From contig JAJTYJ010000002.1 in assembly GCA_021463485.1 (NCBI GenBank), positions 108,638-172,637 on the forward strand: 64,000 nt of DNA, written 5' to 3'. The position numbers were made by a program, and so were the translations under genes. This DNA is from a bacterium (GTDB taxonomy: Bacteria > Patescibacteriota > UBA1384 > 2-12-FULL-50-11). The number at the start of each line of letters is the position of its first letter. The first letter of the stretch is position 1. The notes under the pieces are model-generated. The model worked only from the letters and a program-made list of their open reading frames with translations. It ran no database searches and was not told the DNA's origin. Positions 6,001 through 18,423 of this stretch are shown piece by piece.

Positions 6001-7491
6001 TTAACCGGTGGTTACCGTCTGTATATTGGCTCGCTGTAAATTGAGCTGAACGTCCTCAGCCTCACCGATAATTCTCTTCTCGGCTGGTAGGTAGCCCGAC
6101 TTTGCCGCAATCACGGAGTGCTTGCCTGGTGGAACTAGGATAATAAATCGTCCGGCTTCGTCTGTTATTGTTGAGTGGATAAAATTCTGTTCGCCCTTGC
6201 TGTCACTTGTTACTTGAATAACTGCTTCACCAAGACCGATATCTACTGCTTGATCCTTTACTAAGCCGAACCGCCTGACTTTCGATGAGCCGAGAATCCG
6301 CATAACCCATAGCAAAGCGTACAGTGTTACTAATAAAATATTTTCCAATGTACGAGCTTGGTAAATCAAAATCAGCGATAAAAGGCTGCCAGCAATTAAA
6401 ACAATAAACTGAAATGTTGTAACTACAGAGACGAATTTAGTAAATTTGGCTACTTTTTTTAGCGAAGCAACCCGAACGTCTTCTCTGACAGCCAAGGCAA
6501 TATCAAAAGTTAGCGGTTCGGTGCGTTTGTCATCAATACTGATAAGTTGACTACGATAGGGGAGATAAAGCGGATTTACAACCTGAACCCAATACTGTCC
6601 CGGTTGGGGAGTTAGAAAGCCGAAACGACCAGTTTTATCAGTCATAATTCTTTTAATTTCCTTGCCTGATTGGAGGCTGAATAACGAAACAAAAACACCT
6701 GGAATCGGCACTTTCGTGACAGCGTCGCGAACCGTTCCCCATTTACGTGGCGGTTTGAAAAACGGAAACAAGCTGTAGAGCAGGTACTGTAAGCCCGGTA
6801 TTCCACCAAGTAGTGCGATCGAGATACTACTCGTAACGGGTGTTAGAATCGCCAATGACGGTACGATTGTTGCCAATCCAACAGCGCCAGGTAGTCCTTG
6901 GGGCACGGCATCAGCAATGTCTTGAATAACTTTATTAATTCGCTGGGGGATCGTCGGAGGCTCACTCGGCGGCTCAGTTGTTCCGCCACCGCCCGGCGGT
7001 GGGTCTTCGTCGTCAGGTGGGGGAGGCGGTGGGTCTTCTCCTCCACCGCCGACTGTTGTGAAGTTGACGGTTGGCTTATCTTTCAACGTTACCGTATCAA
7101 CTACAGCGGTGTAGGTTGAAAGGCCGATGGTGGTGGAACTAACGAAACAGGTGAGCCTACCGCTAGCGTTGGTCGTGCCGGTGTTCTGTTGAGTCGAAGT
7201 CTCGTTAGCAAGATCGCAGTCGATAAAATCGAGCAATCCGCGCGAGGAAGTAATGGTGACGAACTTATTCGGCAGCACTTGGTTAGCGGCGTTACGAGCA
7301 GTTACAACTAAGGTTGAGAGCGCGATGCCATCGGCAGGCACTGAAGTAGGGGCAGCGGTAAATGTTGACAGATCGTCGTCGACGTTTGGCAGCACGTTAG
7401 CGTTAACATCAATATTCGTTTGAGCTTGTACGCCGGAGCTAACAGCTAGCAGCAAGATTGAGGCAAGCGCTGCGCGCAGCACTTGTACCAT
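6001..7491 (-). CDS. Surface-cluster polytopic membrane protein: signal peptide, Ig-like (Big) domain, Pro/Gly-rich linker, two transthyretin/CarboxypepD_reg-like domains separated by TM helices
   Basis: N-terminal signal MVQVLRAALASILLLAVSSGVQA is followed by a PPPPPPDDEDPPPGGGG linker. The blocks GQYWVQVVNPLYLPYRS and GRFIILVPPGKHSVIAAKSGYLPAEKR resemble carboxypeptidase-regulatory/transthyretin folds. There are several hydrophobic helices. Its start overlaps the stop of the upstream gene (TAATG). Confidence 0.5.
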   Translation of the reverse strand: MVQVLRAALASILLLAVSSGVQAQTNIDVNANVLPNVDDDLSTFTAAPTSVPADGIALSTLVVTARNAANQVLPNKFVTITSSRGLLDFIDCDLANETSTQQNTGTTNASGRLTCFVSSTTIGLSTYTAVVDTVTLKDKPTVNFTTVGGGGEDPPPPPPDDEDPPPGGGGTTEPPSEPPTIPQRINKVIQDIADAVPQGLPGAVGLATIVPSLAILTPVTSSISIALLGGIPGLQYLLYSLFPFFKPPRKWGTVRDAVTKVPIPGVFVSLFSLQSGKEIKRIMTDKTGRFGFLTPQPGQYWVQVVNPLYLPYRSQLISIDDKRTEPLTFDIALAVREDVRVASLKKVAKFTKFVSVVTTFQFIVLIAGSLLSLILIYQARTLENILLVTLYALLWVMRILGSSKVRRFGLVKDQAVDIGLGEAVIQVTSDSKGEQNFIHSTITDEAGRFIILVPPGKHSVIAAKSGYLPAEKRIIGEAEDVQLNLQRANIQTVTTG

Positions 7492-8471
7492 TATTGAATA
7501 ATCCGTCGAGGCGGACGCGGCTGAACTTGTTGTGGCGGAATGGTATTGACGTACTCTTTAAGTTTGGCGCGTTTGCGACGTCGAGTAACGATGAGCGTGC
7601 TGATAATAAGAAGCAGCGCGATGATCGCGATAATCAGCCAAAGCGGAATAACTATAAAAGTTCGGTTAGCGACTAACTGCTGCTCTGGAAGCCCATAAGT
7701 TAACGCTAACGATGCGGTAAATTTACCCATTGTTTTCCAGTCGAACTCCCAAGTGTTGTTAAAGCGTCGCTTGCTCTCTGGTAGGACATTGCTGTTTCCC
7801 TCGTTAACTTTAAGCGTTTGAACGACGTTACCGGACCAGTTTCTTATCTTTATCTCGCCGACCGGCTTCGAGTGGATGTTGCCGACGTTATTAATGCGAG
7901 CTGAGAAATTCGCCGGCGGGCTAATCAGAAAGACCGGCGCGTCAAAATCTTCTAGTAATAGTTTTTCGGTAATATCGCCCGGAACTGTTACCAGCAGCAG
8001 TGTGCCGACCAAACCGACAACGCCAATTTGGCTTACGTCTTCGTCAAGTTTTGGCTCTTCGGTAGAAAAGAGGATTGCGCCGTAATGCCCGCCCGGTTCG
8101 GCGTTTGCTGGGGCGGTAATGGTAACCTCAAATTTTTCTTCTTCGTTTGGCTCGATCCGGAGGAACGGCTTTGAGAACGTTGCCCAACTCGAGAGTGCGT
8201 AGGTTGAGTATTTCTCTTCTTCAGTAAAAAAGACCGGTTTACCGCCGTCGTTATCGGTATGAAAATTCATAATCCGCGGATACAGCGTCATCGATCGAGT
8301 AATCGGATTAATCACCCGTACGGTTCTGGTGACTGACTGTCCGGGGCTAACGACAAACTCGTCTTTAACCGGAGTTACTGTAATACCCGCCGCTCCGTTT
8401 TGAGCAAATGTTGAGTTAGAAAACGTTGCTAGAGTTAACAGCAACAAGGTAGCTGCCAGGAATCTATGCAT
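7491..8471 (-). CDS. DUF916/DUF3324-like cell-surface protein with C-terminal membrane anchor (CscA-like topology)
   Basis: Signal peptide MHRFLAATLLLLTLATFSNSTFA, then a beta-rich ectodomain of about 270 aa, then a single C-terminal TM (IPLWLIIAIIALLLIISTLIV) followed by RRRKRAKLK and a Pro-rich tail. The family assignment is based on topology only. Confidence 0.4.
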   Translation of the reverse strand: MHRFLAATLLLLTLATFSNSTFAQNGAAGITVTPVKDEFVVSPGQSVTRTVRVINPITRSMTLYPRIMNFHTDNDGGKPVFFTEEEKYSTYALSSWATFSKPFLRIEPNEEEKFEVTITAPANAEPGGHYGAILFSTEEPKLDEDVSQIGVVGLVGTLLLVTVPGDITEKLLLEDFDAPVFLISPPANFSARINNVGNIHSKPVGEIKIRNWSGNVVQTLKVNEGNSNVLPESKRRFNNTWEFDWKTMGKFTASLALTYGLPEQQLVANRTFIVIPLWLIIAIIALLLIISTLIVTRRRKRAKLKEYVNTIPPQQVQPRPPRRIIQ

Positions 8472-9566
8472 TTAGAAAATCCCAGTACACACGTATGTAA
8501 TATTATCAGTGTAAGAACCAGCGTTTGCCAAACCGGAGACAGCCGCTTTATGCACAATCGTCAGCACTCGACTTGCCATCGGCCCGGATCCTGAAGCTAT
8601 CGGTGTCGCTGTTCGCAGCAGTCCACCTACCTGGTTACCAGACACATTATAGGGGCTTAAGGCAGAAAGAGCTGCACCTGAACCGCCAGATGTCGATCCT
8701 TGTATCCCGTAACCATCTACCCCGACAGAAAGTGTAGCGTCGGCTGATGCGATTAAGTACGTAGGTGACGAGCTTTTGTACAATCCAGGGTTAGTACCGC
8801 TACCTTCGTCGCGAACACTCACTGCCACCCCGCTCGCAGCGTTGGTGCTGATAGTTATTGTTGTGCTCGTGTCAGACGTAGAAATTGCACCAGTCGTCAG
8901 TGATGCAAAGGTTGTGGTTAGTCCAGTGAACGCGCAGGTAATTGACGGATCAACCGTAGCGTTAACTGTCACATCATTGTCAGCTACGATCTCGACAGCA
9001 ATCGAGCCAGAGTCGGCCATCGTACCGCCGATAAGAATCTTGGCGTCAGTAGCGTTTTGGGCAGCGGTTTGGTTGACGATCGTATTAGCTGCACCGCCAG
9101 CGTTGGTACCTGCTTCTAGTTGGATGCATCGTCCTGCCGCAACTGTGTCGGTGCCAGATGTAAATGTTACAACCTGTCCGGTAATGTCAAATCCCCAAGT
9201 AGTGCCTGAGGCTGTTAATGCGATAGTTTTATCGGAAAAACTCGCACATGACCCAGCAGCACTAACAGCGAAGTCCCAGTTAGAGGTGCTTTCTGCTGCA
9301 AGAGCAAATCCCGTAGGAAAGGTAATAGTAAAAGTCTGACCGGCTGTTATCCCAGTTGGTGTAATAAACTCGATTGTATGATCAGCATTCTGACTCTCTT
9401 TTAAGGTTGAGAGGGTGTCTTTGGCGCTGGTAACTTGTGCAGCGTATACGTACGATCTAACCGGAAAAAACGCAAGCAACAACGCCGCGATTAATAGGTA
9501 AGAAAACCTTCGATAATTCCCCTCGTTTCGGTTCATCTGAAATAAGTTTCTTTTTCCCTTGGGCAT
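8472..9566 (-). CDS. Secreted surface protein, paralog A of a 3-member family (conserved N-terminal and C-terminal domains, C-terminus …ITYVCTGIF)
   Basis: Signal peptide. It shares the N-terminal block (DTLSTLKES…H) and a roughly 180-aa C-terminal domain (…VDGYGIQGSTSGGSG…TIVHKAAVSGLA…YVCTGIF) with 9579-10688 and 10730-11818. Confidence 0.55.
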   Translation of the reverse strand: MPKGKRNLFQMNRNEGNYRRFSYLLIAALLLAFFPVRSYVYAAQVTSAKDTLSTLKESQNADHTIEFITPTGITAGQTFTITFPTGFALAAESTSNWDFAVSAAGSCASFSDKTIALTASGTTWGFDITGQVVTFTSGTDTVAAGRCIQLEAGTNAGGAANTIVNQTAAQNATDAKILIGGTMADSGSIAVEIVADNDVTVNATVDPSITCAFTGLTTTFASLTTGAISTSDTSTTITISTNAASGVAVSVRDEGSGTNPGLYKSSSPTYLIASADATLSVGVDGYGIQGSTSGGSGAALSALSPYNVSGNQVGGLLRTATPIASGSGPMASRVLTIVHKAAVSGLANAGSYTDNITYVCTGIF

Positions 9567-9578
9567 TTGTCAAGTTTA

Positions 9579-10688
9579 CTAAAAGATACCAGTACAAACG
9601 TACGTTAATGTATCTGTGTACGCGCCAGCGGCTGCCAAGCCAGAAACGGCTGCTTTATGAACAATTGTGACAACTCTACTGGCTACGGCACCAGTTGCGG
9701 AAGCTAAAGTTATTGGAGTTAATTCAAGGCCGCCAACATCATTACTTGTTTGATTATACCGAGCGGCAATAGCCACCGTTGCTCCTGAACCACCTGAGGT
9801 TGAGCCTTGAATCCCGAACCCATCTACGTCGTTTGTAAGTGTAGCAGTATCAGAGAATGTCGGACTCCCATCCGCTGAGCCAATCAAATACGTTGGTGAA
9901 CTACTCTTATATAATCCTGGATTACTGCCGTTACCAGCGTCACGCACAGATATGTTAAAGCCGTTCGCGGCATTAGTACTAACCGTTATAGTTGTATTTG
10001 TATCCGACGTTGCGACCGGTCCGGTCAGCGAAGCAAAAGTAGTTGTTAAACCGGTGAACGCGCAGGTAATTCTTGGATCAACCGTAGCGTTAACAGTTAC
10101 GTCGTTATCGGCAACAATCTCAACAGCGACGCTACCAGTGTCTGTATAGCCGCCACCTCCAGTTAGGGTAATAACACCGTCGGTACCGTTTTGAGCGGCC
10201 GTTTGGTTGGTAATTTGATCGTTGCCGGTTCCGCCAGTAGTGGCGTGTGTACCGATCTCAATTACTACTACGGATCCAGCTGCAATTGTTGCGTCACCAG
10301 TACAACGAGTAAAGGTGAAGCCGATCGGGTCGACGGTATCAACGGTTGTAATCGCGATTTCAAGTGTTGCACCGGTGCAACCGCCACTTGCTACAAGGTT
10401 TTGTTCCGCGCCGTCGTCGGTAATGTCAAAATCTTCTGGCTCCGTATTGGCAAAGCCTGAGTTACTAAACCCTGCCGGGAAATCTAACGTCAGTGTCTCG
10501 TCAGCCGCCCACCCGTCCGTGATAGTAAAAGTAAATGTATGATTAGCGACGACGCTTTCCTTAATGGTTGAGAGCGTGTCAGAAAATGACGTCACGTCAG
10601 CTGCCTGGGTTCTGGTAACAGGGAAACTGCTAACGAGCAGTATCGCGACAATAATTTTTCTTATGGAATTAAACGAAACCCCTCTCAT
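9579..10688 (-). CDS. Secreted surface protein, paralog B (C-terminus …LTYVCTGIF)
   Basis: Signal peptide MRGVSFNSIRKIIVAILLVSSFPVTRTQA. The N- and C-terminal domains align with paralogs A and C. The middle region is T/G/D-rich and variable. Confidence 0.55.
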   Translation of the reverse strand: MRGVSFNSIRKIIVAILLVSSFPVTRTQAADVTSFSDTLSTIKESVVANHTFTFTITDGWAADETLTLDFPAGFSNSGFANTEPEDFDITDDGAEQNLVASGGCTGATLEIAITTVDTVDPIGFTFTRCTGDATIAAGSVVVIEIGTHATTGGTGNDQITNQTAAQNGTDGVITLTGGGGYTDTGSVAVEIVADNDVTVNATVDPRITCAFTGLTTTFASLTGPVATSDTNTTITVSTNAANGFNISVRDAGNGSNPGLYKSSSPTYLIGSADGSPTFSDTATLTNDVDGFGIQGSTSGGSGATVAIAARYNQTSNDVGGLELTPITLASATGAVASRVVTIVHKAAVSGLAAAGAYTDTLTYVCTGIF

Positions 10689-10729
10689 CTACTTTCTAAC
10701 GTTATAACTAAATTACTCATATGTAAAGG

Positions 10730-11818
10730 CTAAAATATTCCGGTGCAAACGTATGTTACTGTATCGCTGTAGGCGCCTGACGGCGCGAGATTTGAAACAG
10801 CCATTTTATGTGTGACCGTAACGATGCCGTTATTGATCGGACCGGCAGTACTCGCTAACTGTTGGCTTGCTCCAGCGCCAACCTCTAACCCGCCGACGGT
10901 GTTGCCGGTTTGGTTGTAGCGCGTGGCGATAGAGAGAGTGGCGCTACCAGCGTCTCCTTGGGTAGCGGCGCCTTGAATGCCGAAGCCGTCAACGTTATTT
11001 GAGAGCGTAGCGGTGTCGGCAAACGACGAGTTGGCGGAGCCGATCAAATACGTCGGTGCGCTACCTTTATATAGTCCCGGACTAGTCCCGTTGCCGTTGT
11101 CGTAGACGCTAATACTCAGCCCATTTGGCGCGTTCGTACCAGCAGTAACGGTTGTATTAGTTGCAGCCGTAATTATTACGCCGGTAGCGTCGGGGAAAGT
11201 AACTGTTAGCCCGTTGAAGGCGCAGCTGATTCTTGGCAACACGGCAACGCTTACGGTTGCGTCGTTGTCAGCGACGATCTCAAGTGCTAACGTTCCCGAT
11301 CCGCCGAAGGTTCCGCCTAGCGTTACCGTTGGGTCGGTGTCGTTCTGAGCTGCGGTTTGGTTAATGATTTGGTCGTTTCCAGTAGCACTAAAGGTTGCGT
11401 GAGTACCGATTTCGATAACAATAGTTGAGGAGCTAGCGATGCTGGTACTGCCAGTACAGAGGGTAAATGTGAAAGCGCTGTTATTAATGGAGGTGATATC
11501 AATTTCGTTTGCGGAGCACAGCCCGTTTGCGGTTATAGCCTTATCGACGCCGTCGTCGGTAATGTCAAAATCTTCTGGCTCCGTATTGGCAAATCCGGTG
11601 GTATCGAAGCTATTCGGAAAGTCTATAACCAACGTCTCGCCCGCGTCCCAAGAGTCGTTAATCGTAAACGTTAACGTATGATTGGCAGCGGTACTTTCTT
11701 TGATTGTTGATAGCGTATCTGAGAAATTACTAACTGTCGCTGCAAGCGCAAATTGGTTCGTTGGAAATAGGGTAGTAACAACGAGCGAAGCAATACTGAA
11801 CGCTCGCAACCAACGCAT
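10730..11818 (-). CDS. Secreted surface protein, paralog C (C-terminus …VTYVCTGIF)
   Basis: Signal peptide. Its N-terminal block (VSNFSDTLSTIKESTAANHTLTFTINDSWDAGETL…FANTEPEDFDITDDG) is nearly identical to that of paralog B. The start overlaps the stop of the giant gene (TAATG). Confidence 0.55.
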   Translation of the reverse strand: MRWLRAFSIASLVVTTLFPTNQFALAATVSNFSDTLSTIKESTAANHTLTFTINDSWDAGETLVIDFPNSFDTTGFANTEPEDFDITDDGVDKAITANGLCSANEIDITSINNSAFTFTLCTGSTSIASSSTIVIEIGTHATFSATGNDQIINQTAAQNDTDPTVTLGGTFGGSGTLALEIVADNDATVSVAVLPRISCAFNGLTVTFPDATGVIITAATNTTVTAGTNAPNGLSISVYDNGNGTSPGLYKGSAPTYLIGSANSSFADTATLSNNVDGFGIQGAATQGDAGSATLSIATRYNQTGNTVGGLEVGAGASQQLASTAGPINNGIVTVTHKMAVSNLAPSGAYSDTVTYVCTGIF

Positions 11819-14800
11819 TAGAACGTTCCGGTAACGATATATAAGACTTCGGTCTGGTAATTTTTTGCAGCTTGCAAGGCATCAACAGCAACTTTGTGAG
11901 TGATGGTGAACACTTCGTTAGTAACTGGACCGGTCGCGCCAGTGACGGCGTCGGTGTGATCGGCGACGATATCGCCAAATGCTGCAGTAGCAAATGATGC
12001 ATACAGCGTGCCGCTACTGAATTTATTCGAGCCCTGAATTGTCGTGTCGTTACTTGTATAGCCGTAGCCGCAGTTCGAACCGCCCGTGCAGAATCCGCCC
12101 GGCCATGATCCAGGTGAAGCGTACGTACCACCCTGGAACATAGGGATAGTAAATGAACCGTTTGTTAGCAAGCCGGTGGCGTATTGCCTGATGACGTAAC
12201 CGCCGTAGGCGTTGGTACTGGTAGTTAGGTTGAGGGTTTTGCTATCAGTTCGATTATTTCCGTCGTTGAGGTTCGAGAACGTAACAGTGGTCGAACCAAG
12301 CGTTAAGCTGATAGTTGGCAAGACGTCCTGACCGTTGGAACTGTGAACGCTTGAGGTATTACTAGCGTTGTCGATTGCTCGAACGTTCACGTAGTAGCGC
12401 TGGTTTGTGTGTAGACTTAACCCCGCTTGTGTTGTGTCCTCGTTGGTTCCGTTATTTGTCCAAGTAAGTATATCGGTTCCGCCGGCTGTTGTACCGATCG
12501 ATACATCGTAACGCAGCAGTCCTGAGGCACCACAACTGAACGCATCCCAGTTGGCTGTTAATTCCTCGAGCGACCCGTCGTTAAACGCAGCGTCGACGTC
12601 TTCAACTAAGCCGTCGTATATTGTCCCAGCGTACGTGCAGGCAGTTGTATCTACGCCAAAGTCTCGAGCCGACTCAGCGTTACCGCCGTAGCTTACCCAA
12701 GATCCGTATACTCCGCCCTGATCTTTAACTCGTGCTTGCCAGTGGTACTCGCTCACGTCTGTTATTCCGCTAATCGTGACCGTAACGGTAACTGGTGTAC
12801 CGGAGTACGCAACGCCAGTTCCGCAAAGATCCTCGGTGTTACTGAAACCAGTGCCAAGTAAGTCTTTTTCAACGCATAGGTATAAAGTGTCGGAAGAATC
12901 AGTGTCTGAGGCTGTTGCTGTAAATTTAACACTCGTTTCATTGGTCCAACCTCCGGTTGCGATCACGGTATCGTTGGTTTTTTTCTGGGCTAAGTCGCTT
13001 GGCGCGTCCGGATTACTAAAGTTCCAATTTACGTTATTGCCACAATCAAAATTTGTTCCGTCGTTTGCCATGATCGTATTGCCGCTCGAGGCGTTCGATC
13101 GAGAGACGTTAACGTAACTAACCGCAGTTTGAGTGCCCGATACGTTCAAATTCCACGATCCGCTGACGGCGCTGTTGCGGAAGTATAGTCTGGTACCGAC
13201 GGCTTGACCGTTCCAGTTGATATTCGTCAGTGTGTACGTAGAACCGGAATTAAACTCTATGCGAGAGCTGGCAGTAGTGAAAACGGTGTTATTGGTTACT
13301 GTCGCTGAAGCAGCGAAGTCAATACCGGCGACAAATCCGGTTCTTTCGCAATCGGATGCGTTAGTGCCTGAGCTGTTAGTGATTGTAAGATTGTAAAATG
13401 AGCTGGACCCAGTCATTAACCCACTTAATGTTTGAGTACTCGTTCCGTTTAATACAACAGTTCCAGTATTAGCATTCAATACAGCATTATTGGTGTTAAC
13501 CCAGTTTCCGCCGACGTTTAGTGTTCCGGATCCGAGTGTCAGTATTGCTGTTGTTGTCCCAAAAGTTACATTACCAGTAACAGTTACCGTATAGCCGTTG
13601 ATATCTATCTCAGACGCGCGACTGCAACAACCAATTAGGAAGCTTGTGAATGAAGCGTTGCCCTGGAAAATTGTTTTAAAACCAGTGTTTTGCTCCGTTT
13701 GAAGACCAGAATTATATGTGAATGCGGGAATATTTTTATTGTTTGATCCGTATGGCGCATATGCGCCGTTACCAGTTCCCCAAGTTCCGGAAGGATTAAG
13801 GTTTAAGAAATTCGCGTTTGTACCAGAATTGTAGAGTAGTCTTGAGTTTAGATCGAATGTTCCCGTTCCTAGGTTGATTTGGTTTTCAACACCAAATGTT
13901 TGCATCATCCGTGTGGTGTTGCCCGATTGCCCAACTGTTAGGTTGTAAAATCGGTGCTGCCAGACGTTTGTTGATCCGGTAGTTATCGTTTTTGTCCCGG
14001 TACCGTTCATAACTACTGTCGACGTCCCTCGAACGAACGATGCGTCGTCAGCGCCAATAGCTGATGTATCCCAGTTACCAGAGACAGTAATGGTGGCGGC
14101 CCGTGCTTGGAACGTCCAGGTACCTGAAGTTCCTGTGAAGTTGTTATCGACCGTTAGGGAATAGTTTGATCCGTTAACAGTGTCATACACACCATTAGTG
14201 ATCGTAAAGTTGTTATTAACGTCTACGGCGGCAGTTGGGGTTAGAGTTCCGCCAGCGGCATTAAGAACCATATTATAAAGAGATTGTCCGTTGGGGGCAT
14301 AGCTAACGGTACCGGAAGTGTTTGTCCAAGTTAAGGTGGAGGTTCCTTCGGTTACCGTAAAAGTACCCGTGCCGTTAACGAATCTAACATTACCCTTAAT
14401 ATTGATATCCGCGCTTGACAAATTTAAAGAATGACTTCCACCGTTTGAAACTGGGAATAAAGCATTACTTGTTCCATTCTCAAGTGTAACGGTACTCGAA
14501 CCGAAGTTACTGGCGATAGCAGTCGTGTTAGAACTGTGACCGGTTGAAAATGATTTGGCTGTCAAGTTAAAGTTTTGTGTGTTGAAATTCGATCCAGCAC
14601 CGCCACTAGCCGCCCAAACAAGAACCGTCCCAGTTGTTGTTACGTTTCCCGAAAGGTTGAATGTAACCGTACTGGCCGTATCGGCACGTAGTAGGATATT
14701 CCAGGTGCCGTAGTTACCGCTGGCGATGGAGATGGTGCTGGCACTTTGCTTGCGCAAATGAAAGGTAGCATTTGAACCCGACAGAGTTGCTGAACCATCG

Positions 14801-17800
14801 ATAGATAGGTCGCTACCACTGGTTCTAAATAGCTCAAATTCGCAAGTTACAGAACAAGTCATAATCCCAGCATTAACGGTTAAGGTATTATAAACATCAG
14901 TTCGCGCAATTGTCATAGTTGTTGTTTGACTGGTCGAGGCAACACCAAGATTATGAAATTGAGTAAAGCCTCCTCCCGTTGATTTGATTTCACCTGTACC
15001 GGTAAGGTTAACTGTAGAGGCTCCCCGAGAAAAACTACTGGAATTACCCTTGTCCCAGTGTCGACCAACACTTATTGTTGAGCCATTTGCGGTAAAGGTT
15101 ACTGATGCGCTATTGGCTAAGGTAAAATCTCGCCCGACCGTGAGAGAATAGTTGGTTCCACTGGTGGAAAAGGTTCCCAAGCTGACAGTAAAATCGTTCT
15201 CTGTTTCAGTATTTGCTCCCAAAGTCCAGCCACCACCCGAACCGTTAAAAACTAAATGATTAAATTTGCCGGTTGAGCCGGATAGGGTGCCGCTGAGAGT
15301 CCTTCCGGTTGTGGTTGAGTTAAAGGTAGCTGTACTGGTGCCAGCGGTGAAAGTGCCGTCGTTCTGCCAGGAGCCGCTGACGTTGATAGCATTAGAATCG
15401 GCTATCCAAGTACCATCATTCTCGACGTGAACTGTAGTTACATCGGCTCCGCCGCCGGAGGCCGGGCGGAAAGTATTGCCGGTTACTATGTATAGCTCCT
15501 CGTCGGTATATGAGCCGAGCGAATCGACCGTTAAGTCGTCGCCGGCGGAGACATCGAAGAATATATCTTCATCGCTGGAAACGGAGTTGTCGTAAGAGCC
15601 AAGGTCAGTATTGCTCAACGTCTGGTTGTCGGCCGAACCAATCGTTAAATGGCGATGAAACAGAACCACGCCGGTAATATCACCGCTTCCGTCATATTTT
15701 GTGACGGCGACGGCCTCCTCGCTGTCGGTCGTTTCGCCGTTAATGAAAACTGTAATGATATCACCGCTATTGGGTTTATTAACACTAGAAATTTGCCAGG
15801 AACCATCGACGGTGGTGTCAACCTGCGCTTGGAGAGAGCCATTAACTGCAACAGCAATTTCATTAGCGCCGTCGTCGGTGCAGTCAGTAGTTTGATCGTA
15901 TTGGTCACAAGTACCGGAAATATTAATTGGAGGCGATACTGTGTAATCAATTAATAACCAAAGGGCTGTAACCCTAACGGTTCCACTTGAGCTAAGTACA
16001 TCTCGAACGCCAATTTGAGCAGAGTCTAATTGAGTATCAGTCCAAGCCGATGCCATTTCTGGCCTGGTGTAAGCGGTCAATGGATAAAGTTTTGGATCGG
16101 CGGTTCCATTAGTTGTCCAAGTAGTTGAGTCCGGTGAAAGGATAGTTGATTCAATAGCAATGCCCGACGACGATTCTTTCAGCCGGACTTTAAAGTCCTC
16201 CTGTGTGGCAGAACTTGTGCTAAATCTGACACCGACTGAAACTAAATTAACAGTATCGCTTGCCCCAATACTAGAATCAGTAATGTTGTATTCGTCGATA
16301 TCGTCGCTAGTTGTTTCCGATACGTAATTAGTGGCGTCATTGGGGGTTACCTCGTCAACACAAGCATAATTTCCGCCCGTACAGGTGCCGTTAGTTGTCC
16401 AGTTGGCAGCGGAACCGGCTGTGTTTGGCCGGAGATGAATAATTTTCCCGTCGCCTGGCCAAGTATTCTGATTTGTACCGATTCCCTTATTGACCGCAAT
16501 ATCATCCCAGATAAACCCTCCTTGATTGTTACTAACTTCTGAATTGTCACTTGCGTTGATCCCAATTCCCAAACGCGCAACCCCAGTTCCAATACTACGA
16601 GTTGTGGAGCTAGCAAAGGAAGTACCATCAATCCTTCCATCAACAATATGTGAACCCGACGAGCCAGTTGTATCTATCCGTAGTTCAATTCGGTACCAAG
16701 TGCCGGTTGATAGGGCCGATGAAGCCGAGCCAACCTGGCTATCTTCATCAAATAATTTCAGGGTATTGGACGAAGTGATTTTTATTGCTGCCCTTTGCAG
16801 GTTACTCGTATCCAAAAATGACATGATGGTGGCATCAAAAATATCCACAGCTGTAGATATCCGAAAGTAGGCACGACCATAGTAGTCCCCGTTCGTGTTG
16901 CTGGATTCAAAATAGTAGCGAACGTATTCCTGCCCGCCACCATTTTCAGTCTCAAGTGAGTATGCACCGGATCGAACTGTACTACTATTTATGGAGGGCG
17001 AGTTGGTAACGGCCGTTACTTCCACACCGGCAGTGGCCGAGTTGAGCTCTAACCCACTGGAGATTAATCTGCCACCGGTGAGAGAAACGTACTCTACTTG
17101 GAGCCAGATGGCCGTCATTTTAAAGCCGGTCCCGTTGGGATCATCGTTGCGAATACCAATTTGAGCAGAATCTAAATTGGTAGTAGTCCACTGGGTAGTG
17201 CTACTGCCCGGCAAGTCATAAATAGTAAGGGCGTTAAGACGAGCCGTATCGTCGTTGTTAGTCACATACCCGCCAATTAGATCATCAATTCCGGTGGAGG
17301 CACTCTCTTCAGTGGTACCGCTAGCGCTAGCTTTGATGCGAGTCTTGTAATTAACATCTCCATTGCCAATCGAGCAAGCCGGCTCTGGGATTACTGCTCC
17401 GCAGATTCCGAAACGAGCGCCGACAGAAACTAGTTTAATGTAATCCCCGGCAGAAATACCGGCGTTTGAGGACGACTCCAGGTTAACATCGTCAAGCTGG
17501 TTTTGGGTGGTACTGCGGATAAAGTCGGTGCTGTCGTTGGGGGTGACTTCATCGACGTCGTCGTAATCATTAGTATCACTGGGATAACCGCCCCAGGCGG
17601 TATTGTCTCCGTCGGCATCGGGTTGCATATGAACAATATTGCCTTCGCCCGGCCAGTTATCAGTTGAGCGGCCTGACGAATTGTTGACAGCAAGATCATC
17701 GAAAAATAAATCGGCCGTGGTCGAGTTTGCCACTCCCCATGTCCACCTATCCACGCCTGCTGCTAGATTCTCCGAAGACGATGTAGAGATTTGGGTACCG

Positions 17801-18423
17801 TCAAGCAACATCGTTGCAGTTGTCGTTGAAAGCGTAGTTGTATTAATATAGACCTCTAAGCGGTACCAGGTGTTTGTTGAAAGTGCTGAACTGGCGGAAC
17901 CAATGTTAGCATTATCCTCTTCATTTCTAAGCTGGAGAGTTGAGGAACTGCTCATGCGGACGCTGATTTTTCCGCTCGATCCATTACCAATTTGCATAAT
18001 ATAGGTGTCTGCACCAGGCGCGGTCGCAATTCTAATATATTGTCTAAACCAAAATTTGTTGCTTTGGGCGCTGTTAGCCCAAGTCTTGTAGATTGTTCCA
18101 GTTGAAGATGTGGGGTTTGCCCTAAATGCATAATCTCCGCTTCGCTTTGTTGAGCTAGAAACGGACACAGTTCCCGCTGATCCGGTAATCTCTACGTTGG
18201 CAGTAAGTGTGTTTAGTTCGGCGCCGCTCGACCAAAGCCGGGTAGCGCTAGCTGAACCAGCCTCACCGAGGATTGTTCGGGGAAAAACTCCATTAACAAT
18301 TAAACTGATGAGGAGCAAGAAAGTAATAGCTGCTGCACCCAAACGAGGCGCTTTTCTGACGATTTGGAGCCTGCGTAAATCCCGAAACAGGCCATCGAAG
18401 CGCTTTTTAGTTTTCCCCTCCAT
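11818..18423 (-). CDS. Giant (2201 aa) cell-surface protein: N-terminal signal anchor, two LamG/ConA-like jellyroll modules, long T/S/G/N-rich beta-repeat region, C-terminal domain shared with the three paralogs (…VLYIVTGTF)
   Basis: 6.6-kb uninterrupted ORF. There are internal duplicated modules (TWYRLEVYINTTT…FFDDLAVNN…NWPGEGNIVHMQP and TWYRIELRIDTTG…IWDDIAVNKG…TWPGDGKIIHLRP). The C-terminal ~170 aa match the paralog C-terminal domain (…ITHKVAVDALQAAKNYQTEVLYIVTGTF). Confidence 0.6.
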   Translation of the reverse strand: MEGKTKKRFDGLFRDLRRLQIVRKAPRLGAAAITFLLLISLIVNGVFPRTILGEAGSASATRLWSSGAELNTLTANVEITGSAGTVSVSSSTKRSGDYAFRANPTSSTGTIYKTWANSAQSNKFWFRQYIRIATAPGADTYIMQIGNGSSGKISVRMSSSSTLQLRNEEDNANIGSASSALSTNTWYRLEVYINTTTLSTTTATMLLDGTQISTSSSENLAAGVDRWTWGVANSTTADLFFDDLAVNNSSGRSTDNWPGEGNIVHMQPDADGDNTAWGGYPSDTNDYDDVDEVTPNDSTDFIRSTTQNQLDDVNLESSSNAGISAGDYIKLVSVGARFGICGAVIPEPACSIGNGDVNYKTRIKASASGTTEESASTGIDDLIGGYVTNNDDTARLNALTIYDLPGSSTTQWTTTNLDSAQIGIRNDDPNGTGFKMTAIWLQVEYVSLTGGRLISSGLELNSATAGVEVTAVTNSPSINSSTVRSGAYSLETENGGGQEYVRYYFESSNTNGDYYGRAYFRISTAVDIFDATIMSFLDTSNLQRAAIKITSSNTLKLFDEDSQVGSASSALSTGTWYRIELRIDTTGSSGSHIVDGRIDGTSFASSTTRSIGTGVARLGIGINASDNSEVSNNQGGFIWDDIAVNKGIGTNQNTWPGDGKIIHLRPNTAGSAANWTTNGTCTGGNYACVDEVTPNDATNYVSETTSDDIDEYNITDSSIGASDTVNLVSVGVRFSTSSATQEDFKVRLKESSSGIAIESTILSPDSTTWTTNGTADPKLYPLTAYTRPEMASAWTDTQLDSAQIGVRDVLSSSGTVRVTALWLLIDYTVSPPINISGTCDQYDQTTDCTDDGANEIAVAVNGSLQAQVDTTVDGSWQISSVNKPNSGDIITVFINGETTDSEEAVAVTKYDGSGDITGVVLFHRHLTIGSADNQTLSNTDLGSYDNSVSSDEDIFFDVSAGDDLTVDSLGSYTDEELYIVTGNTFRPASGGGADVTTVHVENDGTWIADSNAINVSGSWQNDGTFTAGTSTATFNSTTTGRTLSGTLSGSTGKFNHLVFNGSGGGWTLGANTETENDFTVSLGTFSTSGTNYSLTVGRDFTLANSASVTFTANGSTISVGRHWDKGNSSSFSRGASTVNLTGTGEIKSTGGGFTQFHNLGVASTSQTTTMTIARTDVYNTLTVNAGIMTCSVTCEFELFRTSGSDLSIDGSATLSGSNATFHLRKQSASTISIASGNYGTWNILLRADTASTVTFNLSGNVTTTGTVLVWAASGGAGSNFNTQNFNLTAKSFSTGHSSNTTAIASNFGSSTVTLENGTSNALFPVSNGGSHSLNLSSADINIKGNVRFVNGTGTFTVTEGTSTLTWTNTSGTVSYAPNGQSLYNMVLNAAGGTLTPTAAVDVNNNFTITNGVYDTVNGSNYSLTVDNNFTGTSGTWTFQARAATITVSGNWDTSAIGADDASFVRGTSTVVMNGTGTKTITTGSTNVWQHRFYNLTVGQSGNTTRMMQTFGVENQINLGTGTFDLNSRLLYNSGTNANFLNLNPSGTWGTGNGAYAPYGSNNKNIPAFTYNSGLQTEQNTGFKTIFQGNASFTSFLIGCCSRASEIDINGYTVTVTGNVTFGTTTAILTLGSGTLNVGGNWVNTNNAVLNANTGTVVLNGTSTQTLSGLMTGSSSFYNLTITNSSGTNASDCERTGFVAGIDFAASATVTNNTVFTTASSRIEFNSGSTYTLTNINWNGQAVGTRLYFRNSAVSGSWNLNVSGTQTAVSYVNVSRSNASSGNTIMANDGTNFDCGNNVNWNFSNPDAPSDLAQKKTNDTVIATGGWTNETSVKFTATASDTDSSDTLYLCVEKDLLGTGFSNTEDLCGTGVAYSGTPVTVTVTISGITDVSEYHWQARVKDQGGVYGSWVSYGGNAESARDFGVDTTACTYAGTIYDGLVEDVDAAFNDGSLEELTANWDAFSCGASGLLRYDVSIGTTAGGTDILTWTNNGTNEDTTQAGLSLHTNQRYYVNVRAIDNASNTSSVHSSNGQDVLPTISLTLGSTTVTFSNLNDGNNRTDSKTLNLTTSTNAYGGYVIRQYATGLLTNGSFTIPMFQGGTYASPGSWPGGFCTGGSNCGYGYTSNDTTIQGSNKFSSGTLYASFATAAFGDIVADHTDAVTGATGPVTNEVFTITHKVAVDALQAAKNYQTEVLYIVTGTF

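Follow-up and report, generated by a model that had tools for sequence, protein, structure and literature searches.

We analyzed a 64,000-nucleotide (nt) window of contig JAJTYJ010000002.1 (assembly GCA_021463485.1; Patescibacteriota; UBA1384), which encodes on its minus strand a giant protein of 2201 amino acids (aa) in an ATG-to-stop open reading frame (ORF) at 11818-18423, exactly where the original prediction had placed it. The giant, which comes from an ultra-small bacterium of the Candidate Phyla Radiation (CPR), is with fair probability the adhesin at the distal tip of a Pam-type pilus that is assembled through donor strands. A host-grabbing Pam tip is the most likely role because the protein combines lectin-like heads, a beta-helix shaft, and a C-terminal docking domain of the pilin type. 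All the strings quoted for it beforehand (TWYRLEV, FFDDLAVNN, NWPGEGNIVHMQP, TWYRIEL, IWDDIAVNKG, and TWPGDGKIIHLRP) occur in its sequence.

The Pam pilus was described in Ca. Mycosynbacter amalyticus, where it consists of the tip PamT, the pilins PamA/B/E, the chaperones PamC/D, and the terminator PamR (Troman et al., bioRxiv 2026, doi 10.64898/2026.03.03.709456). According to that preprint, the pilins polymerize by inserting a linker into the C-terminal domain (CTD) of their neighbor, PamT is a tip subunit made of a single acceptor domain of ~240 aa without a linker, PamC and PamD are PapD-like chaperones that carry a transmembrane helix at the C-terminus, and PamR, a terminator anchored in the membrane, donates a strand at its N-terminus. 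The same preprint states that the mode of contact between filament and host is not known, and it mentions no adhesin, LamG, beta-helix, or WxL.

The giant is connected to this system primarily through its CTD. Exactly four proteins of the window share this domain, namely, the giant and the products of the three ORFs directly downstream. When giant-type CTDs were compared with 58 pilin-like proteins by hhalign, the two aligned over 159 columns (99.8%, E 8.2e-29), and the alignment was confined to pilin columns 190-374, which are the pilin CTD. The domain had been described as a shared anchoring domain; it is indeed shared, but it is a domain of the Pam pilin type and a proposed donor-strand acceptor, and it most likely docks the giant onto the pilus rather than the cell. 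Its C-terminal end follows the pattern Y-x-x-T-[GP]-x-[FY]. The sole NCBIfam match for the CTDs is NF058581 (CPR_Pam_pilin_C, 'Pam pilus system pilin subunit'), which is found in 49 of the 58 pilins and in 34 of 35 class-T proteins (E ≤ 1e-3, best 9.7e-13), the latter being short proteins that occupy the gene slot of the giant in other loci. The CTD of the giant matches positions 3-148 of the 148 in this profile with 27.6 bits (E 2.6e-6), and the window pilins score 18.6-20.6 bits, so that the curated cut-off of 55 bits is not reached by the giant; these scores therefore indicate a distant homolog and not a certified member. Judged from these profiles, the giant and pilin CTDs form a distant sister family of Pam. 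The PamT model NF058579 (cut-off 240 bits) gave no match with the giant; among the short same-slot proteins, 26 of 35 match this 'CPR-type pilus protein PamT' model (best E 3.5e-15), partially (first 78 positions) and far below the cut-off.

To assign the subclass of the CTD, we used two hidden Markov models (HMMs), a class-T HMM built only from the ~360-aa short same-slot proteins and a class-P HMM built from shaft pilins. The CTD of the giant scores 126 bits on the class-T HMM and 80 bits on the class-P HMM, a difference of 46 bits. Similarly, the giant shares a GD[PI]VAD loop with 28 of 36 class-T proteins, and none of 51 class-P proteins has it. These comparisons assign the domain to the PamT-like (tip) subclass. 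Directly before the CTD, the giant has only the polar segment SSVHSSNGQDVLP, which forms the G strand, the last strand, of a fibronectin type III (FN3) domain in the structural model. On the basis of sequence and this model, the giant lacks a donor strand. An acceptor domain with no donor strand is the signature of a tip subunit.

The cysteines of the giant and of the window pilins are also placed differently. In each of the three shaft pilins of the window, the first CTD strand (..ITCAF / ..ISCAF) and the last one (..YVCTGIF) contain one Cys each, a placement suited to a domain-closing disulfide. The CTD of the giant has neither of them and carries a local loop Cys pair instead (GGFCTGGSNCGYG); outside the CTD, its Cys residues are also all in close pairs.

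The giant is the first of six co-directional genes (6001-18423) separated by overlaps or gaps of 0-41 nt, and is followed by three pilins, a 326-aa chaperone-like protein, and a 496-aa membrane protein. The start of pilin 1 overlaps the stop of the giant by 1 nt. Judged from the genes alone, the operon contains the components that define a Pam operon, namely, pilins, a transmembrane-anchored chaperone, and a transmembrane-anchored terminator with an N-terminal strand. The three pilins are mutually 46-58% identical. Their linker comprises 19 residues, is alternating hydrophobic, and ends in ..EIVADNDVTVNATVDP, and this end is among the three most conserved stretches of the pilin family. The mature N-terminus of the 496-aa protein, QTNIDVNANVLP (nt 7387-7422), is a near-copy of the pilin linker NDVTVNATVDP. 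A six-frame search of the window with [VIL].[VIL]NA.[VIL].P returned only three matches, which are the linkers of pilins 2 and 3 and this strand. Moreover, a similar strand occurs at the mature N-terminus of four homologs of the protein (L003:13523-14482, L004:15424-17235, L005:13377-14213, and L008:13683-15101), reading NTTVNATVVSSV in L003. The 496-aa protein looks like a donor-strand terminator and anchor, with a domain make-up unlike that of PamR. Together with the chaperone-like protein, it fits the roles that the preprint proposes for PamR and PamC/D. Scans of the window for promoters and terminators performed at or below chance.

The chaperone-like protein provides a second connection, to the WxL systems of Firmicutes. 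The window copy matches PF06030 (WxLIP_PGBD, DUF916) with E 8.7e-5 and 23 bits, below the cut-off of 27.3, and 34 of 54 homologs match it with E values down to 1.3e-8. The family profile also matches EfmWxLIP1 in the PDB (9i1y/9i25; E 1e-3). The gene is syntenic in ~60 loci, and ~100 homologs are present in L003-L080. The WxLIP neighbors of WxL proteins are characterized by DUF916, DUF3324, and a transmembrane helix; judged by PF06030, with the window copy below the cut-off, the operon has a neighbor of this kind. On these profile matches, the Pam-type chaperone family is homologous to WxLIP (DUF916).

This homology is also a ground for an alternative that we regard as unlikely, in which the giant is displayed at the envelope with no filament and its CTD is permanently complemented by the WxLIP-like chaperone or by the strand that the last gene product would donate. 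Such an arrangement would resemble the 'platform' model proposed for large Firmicutes WxL proteins, whose clusters have the same parts and for whose WxL domain the insertion of a beta-hairpin from WxLIP is predicted; the N-terminal strand of the terminator could likewise cap the giant directly. Against it, the operon contains three pilins with conserved donor linkers, and the related pilins of M. amalyticus were seen by cryo-electron microscopy as long filaments. A rod of 2000 aa would gain little from being co-encoded with pilins unless it rides on them. Furthermore, HMMER found the Pfam WxL domain neither in the 58 pilins (E ≤ 1) nor in the giant, and a double W-x-L motif was absent. Tip position on a pilus is the reading that we follow below.

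The N-terminal part of the giant consists of two head modules. Compared directly by BLASTP, aa ~66-445 and ~456-827 align over 391 columns with 35% identity (E 2e-59), so that the duplication proposed originally is a true pair of paralogs, about twice as long as had been assumed; a self-BLAST of the full giant (E 1e-3, composition statistics off) gave no off-diagonal matches. An AlphaFold2 (AF2) model of residues 55-460, based on a 37-sequence alignment of homologous modules, reached a predicted local distance difference test (pLDDT) score of 89.4 and a predicted template modeling (pTM) score of 0.90 and shows two all-beta domains. Domain A is predicted to adopt the jelly roll of ~180-200 aa that is typical of the ConA/LamG superfamily. 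In Foldseek it matches Cip1 (3zyp), PL20 glucuronan lyase (2zzj), TtX122, the BoNT Hc N-domain, and the lectin domain of trans-sialidase, each with probability 1.00; E values range from ~1e-8 to 1e-6 and TM(target) from 0.52 to 0.60. Among 49 homologous modules compared with ConA-clan Pfam profiles at E ≤ 0.01, nine match PF21340, four PF22237, and three PF13385, and some full-length homologs carry precomputed PF13385 or PF10102 matches. The giant itself has no above-threshold match in whole-protein Pfam and NCBIfam scans (best, DUF642, E 0.0025, and Ig_Rha78A_N, E 0.039), and membership of the ConA clan at the Pfam gathering score is thus not reached. The model, the superpositions, and the Pfam matches of homologous modules nevertheless bear out the jelly-roll heads of the original prediction.

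The PG(E/D)G...H(M/L)(Q/R)P segment, originally taken as a linker, is actually the interdomain turn and first strand of a second domain of ~185 aa (D2), one of which is present in each module. The two-domain alignment to tandem CBM22 (4xup) in Foldseek has a high rmsd. Across the modules, the invariant positions are an R, an E, W-Y-R-x-E, and F-D-D-x-A-x-N, all in conserved strand motifs. Based on the predicted folds, the heads are lectin-like, and carbohydrate binding is a prediction only.

The same folds might instead belong to an enzyme that acts in place of or besides an adhesin, with the heads and/or the beta-helix serving as a polysaccharide lyase or depolymerase on the host capsule or wall. 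PL20 glucuronan lyase and Cip1 are among the best Foldseek matches, and nine of the 49 homologous modules match Pfam 'Polysacc_lyase-like' (Cip1-like core) and one matches Polysacc_lyase. We consider this quite improbable: the giant is 7-17% identical to any enzyme and matches no Pfam or NCBIfam enzyme family, and catalytic residues were not identified in it. The residues invariant among modules lie in strand motifs (WYR.E and FDD.A.N) and appear to resemble a structural core rather than a cleft.

Between the heads and the CTD lie a pre-stalk domain, a stalk, and an FN3 pair. Residues ~1001-1800 contain 5-11 charged residues (D/E/K/R) per 100 aa, compared with 13-22 elsewhere in the giant, and 59-67% of them are S/T/N/G/A/Q. 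This agrees with the polar, low-charge stalk of the original prediction, but its length is ~800 aa and not ~1000, and the proposed repeats were not confirmed. Tandem Repeats Finder found no DNA tandem repeat, internal BLAST alignments were not significant, strong periodicity was absent, and autocorrelation peaks were weak (lags ~183-185 and 129-140); the stalk is not a true repeat. A model of residues 1002-2201, based on a shallow 17-sequence alignment, is of medium confidence (pLDDT 71.4). For residues 1010-1800, short strands are predicted at intervals of about 7.5 residues, and helices or long disordered stretches are absent; this agrees with the three-faced coil of stacked short strands in a right-handed parallel beta-helix, the fold of pectate-lyase-like proteins and autotransporter passengers. 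The predicted strands and the lack of disorder agree with the beta-helical stalk that had been specified beforehand. In Foldseek, this model recovered only the tandem FN3 pair (aa ~1801-2035), a region that 40+ loci keep together with the CTD. If each coil takes up ~22-25 residues and rises by 4.8 A, the ~790 residues of the beta-helix would span ~15-17 nm. Because the jelly roll is predicted for the heads and disorder is not predicted for the stalk, the class originally assigned to the giant, a lectin-tipped fiber or adhesin, is right.

The giant probably begins with a Sec signal peptide, as judged from its translation. In homologs (N-termini of P0002-P0022), the leader consists of an RRLDG[IV]Y box, a basic ..R..G stretch, a hydrophobic segment of 18-20 residues, and then P..TLGE[TA]G[SA]AS..RLWSSGAEL. 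This unusual, extended leader could serve very large surface proteins of the CPR as a specialized signal for export or sorting.

Table. Features of the giant and of the operon that it opens (window coordinates; aa ranges refer to the giant)
Feature	Position	Strand	Description
Giant leader, aa 1-55	18259..18423	-	Basic N-region, ~20-residue hydrophobic segment, then ..TILGEA/GSAS (from the translation; pattern common to homologs)
Head module 1, domain A, aa ~62-248	17680..18240	-	Predicted ConA/LamG-type beta jelly roll; AF2 pLDDT mostly >90
Head module 1, domain B (D2), aa ~262-446	17086..17640	-	Second all-beta domain, begins with PGEG..IVHMQP; its strands span residues 208-392 of the AF2 model
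Head module 2, aa ~456-830	15934..17058	-	LamG-like domain and D2, paralog of module 1
Pre-stalk domain, aa ~831-1009	15397..15933	-	Acidic, one Cys pair; 63-85% identity in homologs, always between head module and stalk
Stalk, aa ~1010-1800	13024..15396	-	Predicted right-handed parallel beta-helix, low charge, degenerate coils
Two FN3-like domains, aa ~1801-2035	12319..13023	-	Top Foldseek matches: tandem FN3 pairs of NCAM, neogenin, titin
CTD, aa ~2036-2201	11821..12318	-	Pam-type pilin domain, PamT-like subclass; no donor/linker strand before it
Pilin 1, 362 aa	10730..11818	-	Signal peptide, N-terminal beta domain, linker LALEIVADNDATVSVAVLP (nt 11234-11290), CTD
Pilin 2, 369 aa	9579..10688	-	Linker VAVEIVADNDVTVNATVDP (nt 10074-10130); 58% identical to pilin 1
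Pilin 3, 364 aa	8472..9566	-	Linker IAVEIVADNDVTVNATVDP (nt 8946-9002)
Chaperone-like protein, 326 aa	7491..8471	-	Signal peptide, two beta domains, C-terminal transmembrane helix, basic tail; PamC/D counterpart
Putative terminator/anchor, 496 aa	6001..7491	-	Signal peptide, donor-like strand, Big_1 Ig domain, Pro/Gly-rich spacer, hydrophobic segments, two CarboxypepD_reg domains (Pfam)

The head module has relatives in phages. The LamG-like and D2 domains together match PHROG family phrog_14065 (E 2e-128), and head module 2 (window 15877-17070) aligns over 376 aa, with 31% identity and E 2e-42, to the N-terminal part of gp11, the 'minor tail protein' of Galactica, a Streptomyces phage of the genus Hiyaavirus (MT316461.1, locus L083). 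This protein (8522-11833, 1103 aa) is encoded between the capsid and head-to-tail adaptor genes. Matches extend to the Hiyaavirus relatives (gp11/gp13) and, more weakly, to hypothetical proteins of phiCbK-like Caulobacter phages; in gp11/gp13 and PHROG 14065, the homology covers the whole LamG-like and D2 module. In the Streptomyces phage protein, the module is N-terminal, the length is ~1100 aa, and there is no signal peptide, whereas the giant has a Sec-type leader. As a lead only, the use of the module on phage virions is consistent with cell-surface recognition and hints at envelopes of the actinobacterial type as one class of target. Two database homologs, P0038 and P0043, begin with the module and have no signal peptide, and for this reason may be phage proteins.

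That the giant itself is a tail or head fiber of phage origin, left by a prophage, or has no relation to pili and is a generic surface or S-layer protein, is highly improbable: the phage matches of the module and an unexplained 'tail fibre-like protein' that the Pam preprint reports near pam operons are outweighed by the housekeeping genes flanking the operon (tig, clpP, pgk, tpiA, and proS) with no phage structural genes nearby, by the Sec-type leader and pilin CTD of the giant, by its translational coupling to a pilin gene through the 1-nt overlap, and by a slot that is conserved across 76 loci.

An FN3-CTD profile was used to scan one genome per species, which yielded 80 loci, in 76 of which the gene carrying the CTD could be classified. 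The slot contains a giant of at least 1000 aa in 39 loci, a short protein of ~360 aa in 34, and an intermediate one in 3; several of the 39 giants run past the 10-kb flank and are therefore incomplete. A chaperone-pilin-chaperone series then follows 19 of the giants and 20 of the short proteins. In the short class-T proteins, the signal peptide is followed by a short N-terminal segment, an FN3 domain, and the CTD; a search with this class found 623 relatives, every one of them annotated as 'hypothetical'. When 1.84 billion cluster representatives were searched with the CTD profile, 1708 proteins matched at E ≤ 1e-3, of which 284 reached E ≤ 1e-30. Among the best 150 representatives, the domain ends at the last residue in every case, the median length is 1688 aa, and 119 have at least 1000 aa; only 13 of them carry the LamG and D2 head. 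Alternative payloads of CTD proteins include PATR beta-helix repeats and Ig-like domains.

The identity between the giant and its nearest homologs (P0003 and P0006) is mosaic. It amounts to 95-100% over the CTD and the last ~400 aa of the stalk (stalkB) and to 87-97% over the FN3 pair, but to only 61-75% in the heads and 49-61% in the first half of the stalk, with insertions of hundreds of residues. Moreover, the closest homologs vary in having two or three heads and stalks from 0 to >2000 aa. These alignments suggest recombination or diversifying selection on the distal part of the giant. The docking end is conserved and the modular binding end fast-changing, a polymorphism that is typical of receptor-binding proteins. 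Examples of this variation are P0021 (1222 aa), in which the heads are placed straight onto the FN3-CTD with no stalk, P0014/L004 (2008 aa), with three heads, and P0010 (3820 aa), with a stalk of >2000 aa. Since natural length variants exist, the reach of the tip appears to be evolutionarily tunable.

The named homologs come from Berkelbacteria, Saccharimonadales, WWE3, Woesebacteria, Levybacteria, and Roizmanbacteria. About one-third of the locus titles name phyla outside the CPR, such as Gammaproteobacteria, and may be mislabeled bins. These include L047 (OZ252106.1, a 2.4-Mb 'Dehalococcoidia' chromosome), L048 (a 1.77-Mb 'delta proteobacterium' contig), and L051-L079 ('uncultured Gammaproteobacteria'). 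Many of these records contain PamT-like, pilin, and chaperone genes. Most such loci, from genomes of 1-1.6 Mb, are probably mislabeled CPR bins; OZ252106.1, in which the chaperone ORFs are fragmented, could represent a true non-CPR case.

Based on these observations, we propose the following assembly. The giant would be exported by Sec as an elongated rod comprising the two heads, the connector, the beta-helix, the two FN3 domains, and the PamT-class CTD. Its CTD would be held by the membrane-anchored chaperone-like protein until the first pilin inserts its linker strand, which would displace the chaperone and complete the fold of the CTD. Further pilins, of which there are three paralogs, would join at the base in the same manner, and the last gene product, with a mature N-terminus that mimics the linker, would cap and anchor the fiber. 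The heads would thus come to lie at the far end of the pilus, projected ~15-17 nm further by the beta-helix and in contact with the surface of a host or prey cell. The logic would be that of FimH/PapG, but with a binding and spacer module of ~2000 residues and no usher.

Several observations weigh against a Pam tip adhesin. Both NCBIfam Pam models are matched far below their cut-offs, with 27.6 against 55 bits for the giant CTD and 41 against 240 bits for a class-T member. The window contains one chaperone gene, compared with two in most loci, and the PamT-like segment at the N-terminus of the short class-T proteins is missing from the giant. Sequence searches of the PDB with the pilin, class-T, and CTD profiles returned nothing meaningful, and the AF2 model of the CTD is of low confidence at aa ~2097-2166 (pLDDT <50). 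In addition, if the leader were uncleaved, the heads would be placed beside the membrane.

Compared with Pam as described, the system agrees in having named homologs from the CPR, pilins composed of an N-terminal beta domain, a linker, and an acceptor CTD, transmembrane-anchored chaperones, a membrane protein with an N-terminal donor-like strand, and no usher; the CTD of the giant is PamT-like and is encoded in a PamT-like slot. In contrast, the giant has ~2000 residues beyond PamT (two lectin-like heads, a beta-helix, and two FN3 domains), and the window terminator has Big_1 and CarboxypepD_reg domains where PamR has an RbmA-like FnIII pair. One chaperone gene replaces the two of Pam, and the nearest named relatives are Berkelbacteria, not Saccharimonadia or Microgenomatia. 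The giant is best described as a PamT-class tip adhesin of a Pam-like pilus, a variant of a system known only from one 2026 preprint.

FimH and PapG consist of an N-terminal lectin part and a C-terminal incomplete Ig-like pilin domain with no donor strand of its own. This domain accepts a donor strand from the next subunit and has none to give, which fixes the adhesin at the tip. The giant would follow the same logic, with an N-terminal binding part and an acceptor-only C-terminal pilin domain. However, no sequence relationship was detected between them, the system of the giant has no outer membrane or usher, and the Pam donor strand is an internal linker and not an N-terminal extension. The binding part of the giant is also ~10 times larger and includes a rigid beta-helix spacer. 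The beta-helical passenger domains of the autotransporter and two-partner-secretion adhesins Vag8, pertactin, EtpA, and Fap2 differ as well: the giant has no beta-barrel translocator, two-partner-secretion domain, or outer membrane, it is only 10-15% identical to these passengers, and it attaches through a pilin domain.

WxL clusters of Lactobacillales and Bacillales encode a small and a large protein that share a C-terminal domain, together with a transmembrane-anchored WxLIP (Hassan et al. 2023, PMC10599100). The cluster grammar is alike, including the variable N-terminal binding domains of the large protein and a transmembrane-anchored partner with two Ig domains, and the partner proteins are homologous (PF06030; PDB 9i1y, EfmWxLIP1). 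In contrast, the CTD of the giant has no Pfam WxL match or double W-x-L motif, WxL clusters belong to Firmicutes and the giant to the CPR, and WxL domains are thought to bind peptidoglycan non-covalently and not to polymerize. Because the Pam chaperones are homologous to WxLIP, WxL clusters and Pam pili may represent one ancient family of usher-less donor-strand surface assemblies in monoderm-type bacteria.

CPR bacteria (Patescibacteria), whose mode of life is attachment to host cells, may make up much of the diversity of bacteria. To our knowledge, the mechanism by which they recognize their hosts is largely unknown; it becomes testable if giants with a PamT-class CTD are indeed pilus tips. 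The CTD is carried by at least 119 distinct 50%-identity clusters of at least 1000 aa, and its profile is a sequence handle for finding adhesins in uncultured CPR genomes. A broader proposal, conceivable but as yet tentative, is that Pam-type pili across the CPR bear giant, modular, fast-diversifying tip adhesins that act as host-range determinants of these episymbionts. The PamT-class CTD would be conserved and the N-terminal heads and stalks of 1000-3700 aa swappable, and some heads would have been exchanged with phage virion fibers that recognize similar surfaces, for example, actinobacterial ones. Collectively, the finding ties together Pam pili, WxL clusters, and phage fiber modules, which had hitherto been treated as separate.

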